Assembly (NCBI GenBank): GCA_043826455.1
Contig: JBDRQD010000015.1
Span: 64,001-128,000, forward strand
Direction of reading: 5' to 3'
Length of the DNA stretch: 64,000 nt
DNA from: Candidatus Bathyarchaeota archaeon
Lineage (GTDB): Archaea > Thermoproteota > Bathyarchaeia > TCS64
Shown here in pieces: positions 14,225-21,061 of the stretch (the first letter of the stretch is position 1; each line of letters begins with the position of its first letter). A model generated the notes under the pieces. It saw only the letters and a program-made list of their open reading frames with translations. It made no database searches and was not told the DNA's origin. The position numbers were made by a program, and so were the translations under genes.

Positions 14225-14724
14225 ACGCGGGGCACCCCAGGAACCAGGCGGCCGAGACGGTGTTCGCGTTGCTGGTGACAAGCGACACCCGCACCAAGGA
14301 GCAAGACGAGACAGGCAAACTGGCCGTGCAGCTGATAGAGGCTGCAGGGCACAGAGTCCAGTTCTACGACGTAGCCCCCAACGACCTTGAGGAGATCGAG
14401 GAGTGGCTCAGGCGCGCCTTAAAGGAGCCCCAGGTCCGCGTGATCTTGACCAGCGGGGGCACAGGCATAGGCGTGAAGGACAAGACTATGGACGTGGCCC
14501 AGTCGCTGTTCGAGAAGCCCCTCCCCGGCTTCGGGGAGTACTTCAGGCGCATCAGCTTCGATGACGTGGGGCTGCCGGGGATATGGAGTCGGGCCGCGGC
14601 GGGGGTAGCTGCTGGCAAACTGGTATTCTGTCTGCCAGGGTCCAAGGGCGCAGTGTGGTCGGCCCTCAAGGAGATCATTCTGCCTGGTCTGGGCCACATG
14701 CTCTGGGAGCTGGACCGAAGATGA
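14221..14724 (+). CDS. moaB: MoaB/Mog molybdopterin adenylyltransferase
   Basis: TSD, TSGGTG, PGFGE.FR, SRA and LPGS motifs. Confidence 0.9.
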   Translation: MNAGHPRNQAAETVFALLVTSDTRTKEQDETGKLAVQLIEAAGHRVQFYDVAPNDLEEIEEWLRRALKEPQVRVILTSGGTGIGVKDKTMDVAQSLFEKPLPGFGEYFRRISFDDVGLPGIWSRAAAGVAAGKLVFCLPGSKGAVWSALKEIILPGLGHMLWELDRR

Positions 14725-15941
14725 CTATGAAGCCTTTTGGTGAACTCACCACCAGGGAGAACGCGCTGAGGCTCATTGAGGCCAATGTGAGGCCCATCGA
14801 GCGCACCGAGAAGGTGCCCCTCGAGAAGGCATCGGGGAGGGTATTGGCTGTTGACATCGTAGCCGGTTTCGATGTGCCCCCCTTCGACAGGGCCAGCATG
14901 GACGGCTACTCTGTGCGGGCGGCCGACACCAAGGGGGTCTCGGAGGCGAAGCCCGTGAGGTTCAGGATCGTGGCCGTGCAGCACACCGGGGAACCATACA
15001 CGGGCGCCGTGGGGAGAGGCGAGTGCATCGAGATAGCCACGGGCAGCCCGGTGCCCGAGGGATGCGACGCCGTGGTGAAGGTGGAGGACACCTCGATGGC
15101 TGGGGGCACCGTGCTCATCCTCCGCGAGGTGGAGCCCGGCAAGGATGTGGCCCCCGCCGGTGAGGACATGAAGAAGGGGGACCTGGTCTTGGAGGCGGGC
15201 GCTGCTCTGACCCCCGGCATGGTGGGGGCCCTGGCCGCCCTTGGCTACGAGGCCGCGGAGGTCTACCAGAGGCCGAGAGTGGCGATATACAGCTCGGGGC
15301 CGGAGATCGTGCCCCAAGGGCAGCCGCTTAGGCCGGGGGAGATATACGACGTTAACAGTTTCACCCTCCAGGCCGTGGTGGAGGCCGTGGGCGGGGAGCC
15401 GGTGAAGAGGGGCATCGTGAGGGACGACGTGGAGTTCATCAAGGCGGCCATGCGAGACGCCTCGGGCTACGACGTGGGGGTGTTCAGCGGAGGCAGCAGC
15501 GTGGGCTCCAAGGACCTGTTCGGTGAGGTCATCGGTGGCCTCGGCGTGGTTCATTTCCACGGAGTTAAGGTGAAGCCGGGCAAGCCCACACTCTTCGGCG
15601 AAGTGGAGGGCACACCCATTTTCGGCATGCCGGGGTACCCCACCAGCTGCCTGAACAACAGCTACGTGTACCTGGCCCCGGCCATCAGGAGGATTGCCAG
15701 GCTTCCGCCCCTGGAGTTGAGGACGGTGACGGTGCCCATGGGCCACAGGCTGGCGTCCAGCTCGGACAGGGAGAGCTTCATAACGGTCCGGCTGGTGGGC
15801 GGCAGGGCCCACAAGGTGTTCAAGCAGAGCGGCGACATCACCAGCATGGCCCACGCAGACGGCTACATCATAGTGCCCGAGGGGGACCACGTCATAGAGG
15901 AGGGTGAGCACGTGGAGGTCACCCTCCTGCCGGGCCCCTGA
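14721..15941 (+). CDS. moeA: Molybdopterin molybdotransferase MoeA
   Basis: PPFDRASMDGY, SGGSSVG, KPGKPT and GMPGYP motifs. Start at ATG14721 (ATGA overlap) or 14727. Confidence 0.95.
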   Translation: MTMKPFGELTTRENALRLIEANVRPIERTEKVPLEKASGRVLAVDIVAGFDVPPFDRASMDGYSVRAADTKGVSEAKPVRFRIVAVQHTGEPYTGAVGRGECIEIATGSPVPEGCDAVVKVEDTSMAGGTVLILREVEPGKDVAPAGEDMKKGDLVLEAGAALTPGMVGALAALGYEAAEVYQRPRVAIYSSGPEIVPQGQPLRPGEIYDVNSFTLQAVVEAVGGEPVKRGIVRDDVEFIKAAMRDASGYDVGVFSGGSSVGSKDLFGEVIGGLGVVHFHGVKVKPGKPTLFGEVEGTPIFGMPGYPTSCLNNSYVYLAPAIRRIARLPPLELRTVTVPMGHRLASSSDRESFITVRLVGGRAHKVFKQSGDITSMAHADGYIIVPEGDHVIEEGEHVEVTLLPGP

Positions 15942-17335: not shown

Positions 17336-17770
17336 TTAGCTGATGGTGCCGTAATCAGCGATGCTGTGGAGGGTGCCCCCTCCAACCTTAGCGATAAGCT
17401 TCTCGTCTGCTGTGTAGGTGGGGGCTCCGAGTTCCTCGCCGGCGCTGAGGTAAGCGGCATCATAGACACTGATGCCGTGCCTAAGGGCGTTCTCGGCGGT
17501 TCTCTCAGCTATCTCGGCCATGGGGATTAGGCGGAACGGGTAGTCGCGTAGGTTTGCGGCGGCCCTCCTCAGGGTCGCTTCTGTCTGGATGGGGTCGTAC
17601 CTTAGGGCATTAAGGGCCTCGTAGAGTAGTAGCTCTATAGTGTGGAGGGAGACCCTGCCCGCGGCCCAGTCTTCCCTGAGGGCGAGGGCCCTGTCAGTGT
17701 GAGCCTCGTCCTTGAACCACTTAACGACGACGGAGGCGTCGATGACAGCTACCTTCGGGCTTCGCGCCAT
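17336..17770 (-). CDS. vapC: VapC-family PIN-domain toxin
   Basis: VIDASVVVKW, E..NAL, SVYDAAY and TADEKL motifs. ATG17770 overlaps the antitoxin 3' end. Confidence 0.88.
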   Translation of the reverse strand: MARSPKVAVIDASVVVKWFKDEAHTDRALALREDWAAGRVSLHTIELLLYEALNALRYDPIQTEATLRRAAANLRDYPFRLIPMAEIAERTAENALRHGISVYDAAYLSAGEELGAPTYTADEKLIAKVGGGTLHSIADYGTIS

Positions 17771-18003
17771 CTCCGTATCTCCTCGGTGCTGCTCCAGTCG
17801 GGCGAGGAGGGTGTCCTGAGGGCGTCGGTCTCCTTGGCGGCTTTCTCCACACTCTCTCTGTCGACCTGGAGGCGCCGGGCCTCCTCTTCCTCGATCTTGT
17901 TGATGATGGCTTGGCGTATGACCTCGCTCCAGTTGATGTCTGGGAGACACCTCATCCTGCGGCGGGTCTCGTCGTCGACCTTGGCGGAGACTACCTCTAC
18001 CAT
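17749..18003 (-). CDS. vapB: VapB-like RHH antitoxin
   Basis: 84 aa with INWSEVIRQAI and SSTEEIRRWRE; lies directly upstream of the PIN gene. Confidence 0.82.
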   Translation of the reverse strand: MVEVVSAKVDDETRRRMRCLPDINWSEVIRQAIINKIEEEEARRLQVDRESVEKAAKETDALRTPSSPDWSSTEEIRRWREARR

Positions 18004-19350: not shown

Positions 19351-20631
19351 CTAGCCCACGGATTTCGGCTCAGACTTGTTTTTCCCCTCTTTGGTCTTGA
19401 GCAGTATTATAAGGAAGGGGGGAATCATGAAGACAATCTGCAGCGTCCAGGGCAACGTGTGGCTCACGTTGTCGTATAGCCAGCCCCCCAGCAGCTGGCC
19501 CAGGCTGAGGGCCATCATGGTGAAGAAGCCGCTGCTGCCGTTCACCCTACCCCTGTGCTCCGTGGGCACCAGGTCCGCGGTCCAGGCCGCCCCGGCGCTG
19601 CTGATGAGCACCTGGAGGACCCCCACCAGGGTCATGGCCAGGATGAGCCTCCAGAAGTTACCGTACAGGAACAGGGGCACCGCAGCGGCCCAGAGGATAT
19701 AGCTGGCCAGCAGGGGCCTCTTCTTGCCGATGGTGTCTATGAGCTTGCCGGTGGGCAGCGCGAATATTATCATGGTGACGAACATGGAGGCCATGATGAG
19801 GCTCAGCTCAAACTCGGTGATGCCCAGGTCGTCCACCATGAAGAGGGTGAACACGGGCATGAACATGCCCACGGTGAACATGGTGAGGACCTGGCTCACG
19901 AAGAGGGTGAACGCCTCCCCTGGCACGAGACGCCATATGCCCACGCTCTCCCTGAAGCTCACAGGGTAGCTGGCAGCCATCTCGGCCAAGTTGATCCTCT
20001 CCGGCGACTCCAAGGTCTCCTTAAGCCCGGTCCTTAGGGCCGCGGCTGCGAAGAAGCCCACCGCAGCCAGGCCGTAGCTCAGCCTCATGGTGGGCATCAA
20101 CCCGATCCGCAGGTAAAGGAACCCGGCGATGAGGGGCGAAGGCGTGGTGCTGACGCTGCCTATGAGGCGGACGATGCCGAACCCCATGCCCCTCCTCTCA
20201 GGGGGCAGGCTGTCAGCTATAAGCGCCTCCAGGGCGGGTCCGTAGATGCCCGTGAACCCCATGACGACTGCCCCTAGGATGATCCACTCCCAGGTAGGCG
20301 CGAAGATGTACACGATGCGGCTGAGCCCGGCCAGCCCCGTCATGGTCATGATGATCCACTTCCTGCCATACCTGTCCGCTATGTAGCCCCCCGGTATCTG
20401 CACCAGGCCCCTGGCTAGCATCTCAGCGGCCCCTATGATGCCCAGGCTGCCGGCTGTGCCCCCCAGAGCCTTGACGTACAGAGGGAAGTAGGTGCCGGGG
20501 AGCTCCGCGAAGAAGTCCACGATGAGCCAGCTCACCATCAGCAGGAGGAAGTTGCCCTGGATGAAGCCGAACTCGTGGCGGAGGCGTTGCAGCGGCCCCA
20601 CTCCACGGTTAATGGTACCATTATCGGTCAT
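19351..20631 (-). CDS. MFS transporter
   Basis: GGYIADRYGRK and GKLIDTIGKKR motifs. ATG20631 (MTDNGTI). Confidence 0.88.
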   Translation of the reverse strand: MTDNGTINRGVGPLQRLRHEFGFIQGNFLLLMVSWLIVDFFAELPGTYFPLYVKALGGTAGSLGIIGAAEMLARGLVQIPGGYIADRYGRKWIIMTMTGLAGLSRIVYIFAPTWEWIILGAVVMGFTGIYGPALEALIADSLPPERRGMGFGIVRLIGSVSTTPSPLIAGFLYLRIGLMPTMRLSYGLAAVGFFAAAALRTGLKETLESPERINLAEMAASYPVSFRESVGIWRLVPGEAFTLFVSQVLTMFTVGMFMPVFTLFMVDDLGITEFELSLIMASMFVTMIIFALPTGKLIDTIGKKRPLLASYILWAAAVPLFLYGNFWRLILAMTLVGVLQVLISSAGAAWTADLVPTEHRGRVNGSSGFFTMMALSLGQLLGGWLYDNVSHTLPWTLQIVFMIPPFLIILLKTKEGKNKSEPKSVG

Positions 20632-20870
20632 GGGTCCCCCTCGCCGCCCCCACAATAAAATTGTATCATTATTGTATCCGGACCCCCACATCCCAGGAAA
20701 ATGGTACCATTTCCCATCTTGGCCCCATCTCTCTGACTTGATAAACCCTGCATTAGTGTAATGGTACCATTATCACGTGGGATGAGTCCTCCCCCACATA
20801 ATGGTACCATTATTCCACCTGCTTCACCTGAATCGTCTCGTCCCCGAAGAATGGTACCATTATCCGTCAT
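20610..20870. repeat. Array of six palindromic AATGGTACCATT repeats with unique 28-48 bp spacers
   Basis: Cores start at 20611, 20659 (degenerate AATTGTATCATT), 20700, 20760, 20800 and 20850. Confidence 0.9.
20628..20870 (-). CDS. Possible 80-aa leader ORF reading through the repeat array
   Basis: Starts MTDNGTI like the MFS gene, and its TGA overlaps the MFS ATG. May be non-coding. Confidence 0.25.
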   Translation of the reverse strand: MTDNGTILRGRDDSGEAGGIMVPLCGGGLIPRDNGTITLMQGLSSQRDGAKMGNGTIFLGCGGPDTIMIQFYCGGGEGDP

Positions 20871-20950
20871 CGGCGACCCGCCCCCATGCCTCTATGACCA
20901 CGATAGTTTTTCCTCGTTTCTTAACCTTTAGGCTGAGCCCGGCCCTGAAC

Positions 20951-21061
20951 TCAGTCATCGCCTGAGGCTTCACCCCTGAGCCTCCGCACCATGTAGAGGG
21001 CCACGGCGCCGTTCACCAAGAAAACGAGCAGGGGGAGAAAAACGTACTCCTGTGGGTTCAC
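20951..21061 (-). CDS. 36-aa single-TM microprotein (below the ORF-track cutoff)
   Basis: GTG start; MNPQEYVFLPLLVFLVNGAVALYMVRRLRGEASGDD; GGAG upstream. Confidence 0.55.
   Translation of the reverse strand: MNPQEYVFLPLLVFLVNGAVALYMVRRLRGEASGDD

Follow-up and report, generated by a model that had tools for sequence, protein, structure and literature searches.

The six palindromes at the start of an MFS transporter gene of a Bathyarchaeia genome are best explained, with modest confidence, as binding sites of an undescribed mobile-element protein, which would have been amplified locally and would spread in a recombination-like manner. The window (the whole analysed stretch of 64,000 nucleotides, C15:64001-128000) belongs to an archaeal genome of 2.95 Mb with 58% GC (G000). 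An earlier note on this DNA had offered a binding array as one of several readings, and this is supported by the present analysis, in which a cognate protein was identified by its association with the site. The motif, the protein and the system are undescribed in the literature searched, although such genes could appear as hypothetical proteins in supplements; the exact 12-mer was found in one unrelated paper.

The palindrome array at the start of the MFS gene

The palindrome has a 12-bp core, TGGTACCA, and consists of two 5-bp half-sites (WATGG/ATTGG) around a central dinucleotide. All six copies described in the earlier note were recovered (Table 1), with spacers of 36, 29, 48, 28 and 38 bp and start-to-start distances of 48, 41, 60, 40 and 50 bp, and the confinement of the 12-mer to the array also held, since a search that allowed up to 2 mismatches gave no extra copy in the window; shuffles had 1.0 match on average, and none of 100 reached six. 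The array is real rather than an assembly artefact, as it recurs, wholly or in part, in contigs of sequencing run X1 and of studies P2 and P4 and in genome G029: one contig of run X1 (possibly the source of the assembly) covers the whole array, those of P2 hold 20345-20673 (5 differences) and 20721-20871 (0 differences), one of P4 holds 20689-20857 (4 differences), and G029 carries the same array with all six copies. RNA runs covered next to none of the region (share at most 0.05).

Table 1. Positions of the features discussed (window coordinates unless a contig of G000 is named)
Feature	Position	Strand	Remarks
Palindrome copy 1	20611..20622		within MFS coding sequence, codons 4-7, N-G-T-I on minus strand
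Palindrome copy 2	20659..20670		2 mismatches in window; perfect in G029
Palindrome copy 3	20700..20711		downstream flank (gene orientation) equals ancestral MFS start at 10/14 bases
Palindrome copy 4	20760..20771		upstream flank equals ancestral MFS start at 14/22 (G008) and 12/22 (G013) bases
Palindrome copy 5	20800..20811		perfect 16-mer; in the predicted fold pairs with copy 4 across a quasi-palindromic spacer
Palindrome copy 6	20850..20861		on original MFS start region; flanks match G008 at 14/22 and 9/14 bases
MFS transporter gene, 425 aa	19351..20628	-	PF07690, E 4.7e-54; host gene with colonised start
80-codon open frame through whole array	20628..20870	-	from ancestral start codon to ATGA overlap with present MFS start
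Ancestral MFS upstream region	20871..20960	-	G-rich ribosome-binding-like stretch; aligned with G013, G008 and G029; putative promoter of MFS gene
Small-gene copies of G000	C10; C67; C11; C30		C10 copy after a primase/AAA module; C67 and (weakly) C11 copies by tyrosine integrases
Exact sites of G000	window array; C6; C81; C48; elsewhere		C6 has two arrays of five copies, C81 a pair, one C48 gene three; the rest are singles

The array is located at the 5' end of the minus-strand MFS gene, which is divergent from a family III CoA-transferase gene. The present MFS gene starts with the ATG at 20628, copy 1 lies inside its coding sequence, and copy 6 is situated on a second copy of the MFS start. 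The 80-codon frame is also open in G029, with mostly non-synonymous differences, and has no Pfam match; it is probably a by-product that keeps the MFS gene translated, and reading from the old start codon across the array to the new MFS start may be what made the allele tolerable.

In the comparison of orthologous MFS loci that had been suggested earlier, the array was present in two of 20 loci fetched, G013 and G008 each have a single decayed orthologue of copy 1 at identical MFS codons, and G019 has none. The flanks of copies 1, 3, 4 and 6 resemble the ancestral MFS start region, and several spacers duplicate the start of the gene, indicating that local duplication accounts for at least part of the array's growth. 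A local origin of part of the array is thus evident from sequence comparison, and the array as such is likely to have arisen by local amplification. The C-runs noted before most copies (G-strings on the minus strand) are present in the sequence and can be explained as parts of the duplicated MFS start region. The self-complementary flanks reported for copies 2-5 are likewise present, except that copy 3 extends to GG..CC only with a one-base bulge. In 98 AATGG-type sites, self-complementarity past the 12-mer was not above consensus expectation (position 7, p=0.19; positions 8-14, p=0.17-0.90).

A phasing of about 10 bp, which had been read from the start-to-start distances, reached a p of about 0.03-0.05 in the window alone, post hoc, and is unsupported family-wide, where 142 spacings gave p=0.84, 0.44 and 0.40 for periods of 10, 10.5 and 11; a 13-bp period (p=0.002 among seven periods tried) is only a lead. 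Comparison of the spacers with phages, plasmids and the genome itself yielded only chance-level matches, which does not support a foreign origin. By eye, spacer 5 resembles a spacer of a C6 array and spacer 1 one of genome G016; these resemblances were rejected as not significant both in local tests and in anchored global ones, in which 9 and 13 of 200 shuffles attained the score (five spacers tested). An Rfam scan gave one chance match only (E 2.7), and a scan of the region for sigma-70 promoters and terminators was set aside as uninformative for an archaeon. Elsewhere in the window, a PIN-domain gene with a small putative antitoxin gene before it (17336-18003, minus strand) appeared ordinary.

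The small protein family and its gene

A small ORF, whose product has about 80 residues, is found amid the arrays of relatives. The family comprises 310 proteins (305 clusters at 50% identity), for which no match was found in Pfam, PHROG or PDB sequences. Fold searches, which could also have pointed to a ribbon-helix-helix or winged-helix regulator, gave nothing significant (best Foldseek E 1.5); the best VIA hit (Z 6.3, rmsd 3.4, 68 aligned) was among generic helical bundles, and no ESM Atlas score was above 0.83. Foldseek matches to Cre (E 2.7-5.7) and HEPN-type VIA rows were discarded as non-significant. AlphaFold predicted three helices (pLDDT 82-84), and modelling suggests that the protein forms a homodimer: the dimer scored 0.55 versus 0.23 for the best control, with pLDDT of at least 72 and at least 80% of contacts in agreement between runs. 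Of the true pairs, 20 of 30 attained this mark, as did 1 of 23 single chains. No recognisable catalytic motif was detected in the protein, and no longer fused form was found among 7999 candidates, which is a weak test. A conserved G-R-P-x-Y-P motif presumably recalls minor-groove arms of the Hin type.

The gene is present in 30 of 71 genomes of the G000 family, with up to six copies per genome that are often broken, several of them with stops, and in 0 of 50 genomes outside this family (single-protein query). In metagenomes, 44 loci were fetched and five excluded for a missing 5' end of the gene; in all of the remaining 39, which had been found with peptide patterns that include palindrome-encoded residues, the palindrome is located on the start codon of the small gene and encodes the first residues of the protein. 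Another site occurs at most 120 bp upstream in 30 of these 39 loci, in 19 of them at 45-57 bp. The codons required by the palindrome serve just 104 of 4243 V-P pairs in G000. Genome G014 has seven sites at 53-66 bp directly 5' of the small gene, a layout like that of the window array, and the window itself is without the small gene. At least four sites were found in 21 of 30 genomes with the gene and in 6 of 41 without it (Fisher p=4e-6, kin not being independent); the latter six have 4-12 sites, the single-contig genome G036 among them, and nine genomes possess the gene yet fewer than four sites. Direct binding of the palindrome by the small protein is considered very likely, and the position of the gene start inside a site, together with the upstream sites, suggests that the protein most likely represses its own gene.

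Sequence covariation points in the same direction. At four loci whose protein has a GPP motif, nearby half-sites were 0 AATGG and 41 ATTGG, at 34 loci with an xRP motif they were 117 and 17, and at the other six loci 19 and 2, respectively. The copy on C30 of G000 is of the GPP type and that on C322 of G029 of the GRP type. All GPP rows belong to a single small clade, which also includes a GAP row, so that the covariation between GPP/GRP and site rests on one or two independent events.

Neighbouring genes were also surveyed. No catalytic partner recurs by the small gene and no recombinase gene by the arrays, no partition ATPase is among the recurrent neighbours, and a short integrase was found by the small gene at G000 loci only. 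This tyrosine integrase of 221-226 residues (G000:C11:8690-9370 and C67:34845-35507) is almost only a catalytic domain; on C67 it is coupled to the small gene, and after it come divergent copies of that gene and a pair of sites in which the central bases are different. Two families of unannotated low-complexity ORFs recur upstream of the small gene at about 11 and 14 loci (e.g., L184:397-1305 and L152:604-1224, both on the minus strand), one with a conserved N-terminal segment ending in F-P-x-W-W/Y, and may represent a second gene of the element. In addition, alternating GC runs of 8-12 bases recur by the gene and the sites at many loci with the gene (e.g., L167, L175, L182 and L309) and are absent from the window array.

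Sites in host genomes and competing explanations

The genome-wide count that had been proposed earlier revealed 18 exact copies of the 12-mer in G000 versus 0.01 expected under a 5th-order Markov model. Of the seven copies of the ATTGG half-site variant, six separate the modules of an island that is located on contig C30. A halo of near-matches is absent (23 and 10 sites of the two types at up to one mismatch versus 18 and 7 exact), which fits gain in blocks better than gradual gain. Site pairs were detected in 9 of 121 genomes, all of the G000 family, and in none of 50 genomes outside it, and viral contigs contained neither an exact site pair nor a relative of the small protein. Most family sites are singles or lie within genes, and some single sites may be chance occurrences, as a control pattern gives 0-3 matches per genome. 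With 1 exact and 22 near matches, one shuffled control palindrome, TGAAGTACTTCA (G000 C6:14836), exceeded the remaining 11 controls, which may reflect another motif or a coding pattern. In G036, which has no small-gene match, a site-bearing segment of about 420 bp is duplicated with 97-98% identity (C1:437860-438440 and 646560-646990), both copies adjoining masked stretches. The same 10-mer core was also observed in two bacterial MAGs as dispersed repeat families: a Defluviitaleaceae record (40 of 80 listed loci) with a hairpin of doubled 10-mers around a 12-nt loop, and a Kiritimatiellae record (18 of 80 listed loci) with 3-5 copies at a 23-bp period; no archaeal protein-profile match was found in the fetched flanks of these repeats.

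Sites inside host genes are consistent with appearance as blocks, which would then be kept by rewriting or selection. The sole clean block replacement with close outgroups is in rpl2 (ribosomal protein L2), where a 12-bp block of G000 and G029 differs from G013 and G008 at 8 of 12 bases between near-identical flanks and turns R-G-A-P into R-M-V-P, G-A-P being kept in 8 of 8 other genomes. At two codon positions of an ICMT-like gene, the ATTGG variant is found in G013 and G008, AATGG in G000 and unrelated codons in G003 and G026. Many sampled sites of other genomes are in frame in housekeeping genes, such as those of chorismate synthase, MoeA and a DUF362-like protein (named by similarity to G000 and reading of sequences), and many in-gene sites encode residues near the ancestral ones. 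Several are common to species whose four-fold sites show 25-66% identity (8 pairs, selected for presence of the site in both species). At G000:C48:83000-86100 and its orthologues, three adjoining genes, of a HAD hydrolase, an ICMT-like and a DUF362-like protein, carry sites at varied positions in at least eight genomes and thus form a hot neighbourhood. The MoeA gene of the window (14583-15941, 5 kb from the array) has no site, and its orthologues in G014 and G015 have an in-frame ATTGG-type site.

Several rearrangements end at sites. At the OTC locus, G029 has the order site-site-site[gene]site, G000 equals G029 minus a 353-bp gene segment that was removed exactly from site to site, and the orthologous small gene in G008 is inverted and has a stop. 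Sites were found at 3 of 30 OTC junctions (27 without), and arrays of varying length and variant at 4 of 30 M20a and 3 of 30 mtd junctions, some of the loci being distant homologues; G008 is empty at the mtd junction. In G019, an array takes the place of the segment that separates two sites of the ICMT-like gene. The earlier proposal of a structure-recognised array of recombination sites is thus upheld in part: site-to-site deletion, inversion and segment replacement do occur, but the sites would be read as sequence rather than recognised by structure. The C30 island (G000:C30:54958-78384) is rich in genes of PIN/antitoxin-like and nucleotidyltransferase-like type, and its intergenic gaps harbour six ATTGG-type sites, all single, one of which is extended to a 26-bp perfect palindrome.

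The following course of events could account for these observations. The palindrome would be the site of an undescribed, three-helix, homodimeric protein of about 80 residues, stemming from integrated mobile elements of one Bathyarchaeia family, whose gene would start inside a site, usually with more sites upstream; gene and sites would have spread onto host chromosomes. An existing site may then become a hot spot, at which neighbouring DNA is duplicated, deleted from site to site, inverted or swapped, and new or variant sites would overwrite host sequence without change of length. The window array would be a gene-less product, in which one site at MFS codons 4-7 was amplified to six with pieces of its flanks. 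The element integrases adjoining the small gene, among them the short one of C11 and C67 and a 324-aa one on C67, would be the first candidates for a catalytic partner. An active, recombination-like writing process, as opposed to host selection, has an even chance of being correct, and the more specific idea that a tiny protein and a recombinase acting in trans overwrite 12 bp with the protein's own site, convert older sites and rearrange the DNA between pairs is a tentative one that falls somewhat short of probable.

The strongest competitor, although itself unlikely, is that the sites are host-domesticated, being bound by the small protein or another host factor, gained by ordinary mutation or duplication and kept by selection, either as operators of transport and amino-acid genes or as marks that organise the chromosome in the manner of matS or SlmA sites. 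The four intergenic arrays of G000 are all at or near promoters (MFS, two M20 amidohydrolases/mtd, and OTC), several species have arrays at the same junctions between genes, in-gene sites have been conserved although synonymous distance is nearly saturated, and the window array is more conserved than its surroundings, with differences between G000 and G029 at 5 of 251 bases, compared with 19 of 321 in the non-coding DNA next to it (p=0.02); the conserved in-gene sites and the low divergence of the array would fit host selection as well as rewriting. However, the arrays are patchy at the OTC, M20a and mtd junctions and differ in number and variant between sister genomes, they accompany broken genes and in G019 destroy a host gene, and the MFS site has decayed in G013 and G008. 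Furthermore, the eight substitutions within 12 bp of rpl2, starting from a 4/12 match, are hard to obtain by stepwise selection, and the orthologues of the array loci are scattered over more than 1 Mb of G036, a single-contig genome of another genus from which positions were read, G000 being in 81 contigs.

It is improbable that the palindromes are crossover sites of integron-like cassettes, with the small gene as a cassette or accessory factor and the arrays as collapsed cassettes. Such a system would explain why the small gene is bracketed by sites and was deleted and inverted between them, and why single ATTGG-type sites separate the modules of the toxin-antitoxin-rich C30 island. Core sites of tyrosine recombinases have a 6-8-bp spacer between their arms. 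The palindrome lacks this spacer, neither attC-like hairpin covariation nor a recombinase gene recurring by the arrays was found, and the in-frame sites in intact genes would be left unexplained.

Even less probable is a centromere or origin array of an integrated element, in which the small protein would be a centromere-binding protein or an accessory protein of an initiator. A small, modelled dimeric protein with several sites by its own gene and a second, low-complexity gene recurring upstream in about 14 and 11 loci would suit this explanation, whereas the irregular spacing, the lack of a partition ATPase among recurrent neighbours and the occurrence of arrays in unrelated host junctions would not; the origin or centromere role raised earlier is also disfavoured by the only cdc6 match in G000, which is far from the window array on another contig (C60). 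Zones of A+C strand skew in G000 are not located at palindrome sites. Finally, the processed repeat-spacer RNA of the earlier note, a CRISPR- or TIGR-like guide array, is hardly credible: the core begins with TG and ends with CCA, as TIGR repeats do in the available text of PMC12045711, and the minus strand of the array folds better than shuffles (z=-5.0), as expected for any strand with six palindromes, but units vary from 40 to 60 bp with no alternating second repeat, the sole Nop-domain match is a 376-codon frame on C18, neither cas1 nor protospacer-like matches were found, several spacers were copied from the gene start, and most family sites are single or in genes.

Should the more specific idea, that a tiny protein and a recombinase in trans write the site into the host, be true, it would amount to a sequence-writing drive that edits host proteins, ribosomal protein L2 included. 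A large unannotated protein family gains a predicted DNA site and a candidate one-residue specificity switch, both directly testable. If the sites are written rather than selected, mobile elements would have a new means of mutating host genes and remodelling archaeal chromosomes, and the system would provide a small, trackable model for how motifs like HIP1 or uptake sequences enter coding DNA. In the case of selection, it would be a regulon or chromosome mark observed in the course of its domestication from a mobile element.

Comparison with known systems

Judged by defining features, the system belongs neither to CRISPR, TIGR-Tas, REP-RAYT or attC arrays nor to origins. CRISPR repeats are about 23-50 bp long, with spacers of near-constant length. 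As the earlier note had recognised, the 12-bp repeat is too short for this; spacers of 28-48 bp do not conform either, and no PF01867 (cas1) match was found in G000 (97.7% complete). For Bathyarchaeia viruses, the available part of PMC10848311 describes only true mini-CRISPR arrays. TIGR repeats start with TG and end with CCA, according to the portion of PMC12045711 at hand, and TGGTACCA does the same; that system, as far as the portion extends, has alternating edge and loop repeats, constant 36-nt units and an adjacent Nop-domain Tas gene, whereas one repeat type, units of 40-60 bp and a single Nop match, on C18, are found here.

There is a likeness to REP/REPIN-RAYT systems: in the excerpts of PMC3116915 and PMC3733652, short palindromes are dispersed in clusters around a cognate gene, gene-less copies occur elsewhere, and the sequence type follows the cognate gene. 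In contrast, the cognate protein here is not an HUH/Y1 transposase, the flanked gene encoding the small protein, and the repeats are archaeal, low-copy, perfect 12-bp palindromes without a loop or tetranucleotide tag. Moreover, extragenic hairpin doublets are characteristic there, to judge from the same excerpts, as opposed to the many singles within intact coding sequences and the absence of flank covariation here. A single PF01797 match (C11:12716) adjoins an IS-type gene and is not flanked by sites, the closest degenerate one being about 3 kb away. Integron attC sites are not resembled, with no covarying arms and no integrase among the window neighbour genes examined, nor are archaeal origins with ORB and cdc6, the cdc6 gene being on C60 only and not by the repeats.

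The sites of matS/MatP, SlmA and Noc as well as parS are dimer-bound palindromes of 12-16 bp, with a few dozen copies per chromosome, partly in genes; the present system differs from them in a cognate gene that is patchy, multi-copy, often broken and mobile. An autoregulatory operator would be expected to overlap the start of its own gene, and this is observed at 39 of 39 small-gene loci, the window array having no such gene. ORF80/PlrA of pRN1 is a mobile-element-encoded protein of about 80 residues with two or more sites at its own start. Stf76 of pSSVx is similarly about 80 residues long, encoded by a mobile element and provided with at least two sites at its own gene start, as stated in the accessible part of PMC4027180. 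Both are winged-helix proteins, as far as these sources go, whereas the small protein has no significant fold match and its site has colonised host chromosomes.

Coupling sequences of Tn916-type elements, which in the section available of PMC12084037 are 6-bp, donor-derived and need not match the target, provide a model of how an element may leave a foreign block of the same length at its target. The block here differs from them, within the same limits, in being 12 bp long and always the same palindrome, and the sites have no link to an element or integrase of this kind. DNA uptake sequences are short motifs that accumulate in coding sequences, with lineage-specific variants that follow the cognate protein. 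The same applies to HIP1 of cyanobacteria in the part of PMC4390886 at hand, where a short motif accumulates in coding sequences and its lineage variants follow the cognate protein. Compared with HIP1 and uptake sequences, as covered there, the palindrome occurs in tens rather than thousands of copies, without a halo of near-matches, and is distinguished by its arrays and by the rearrangements that end at its sites.
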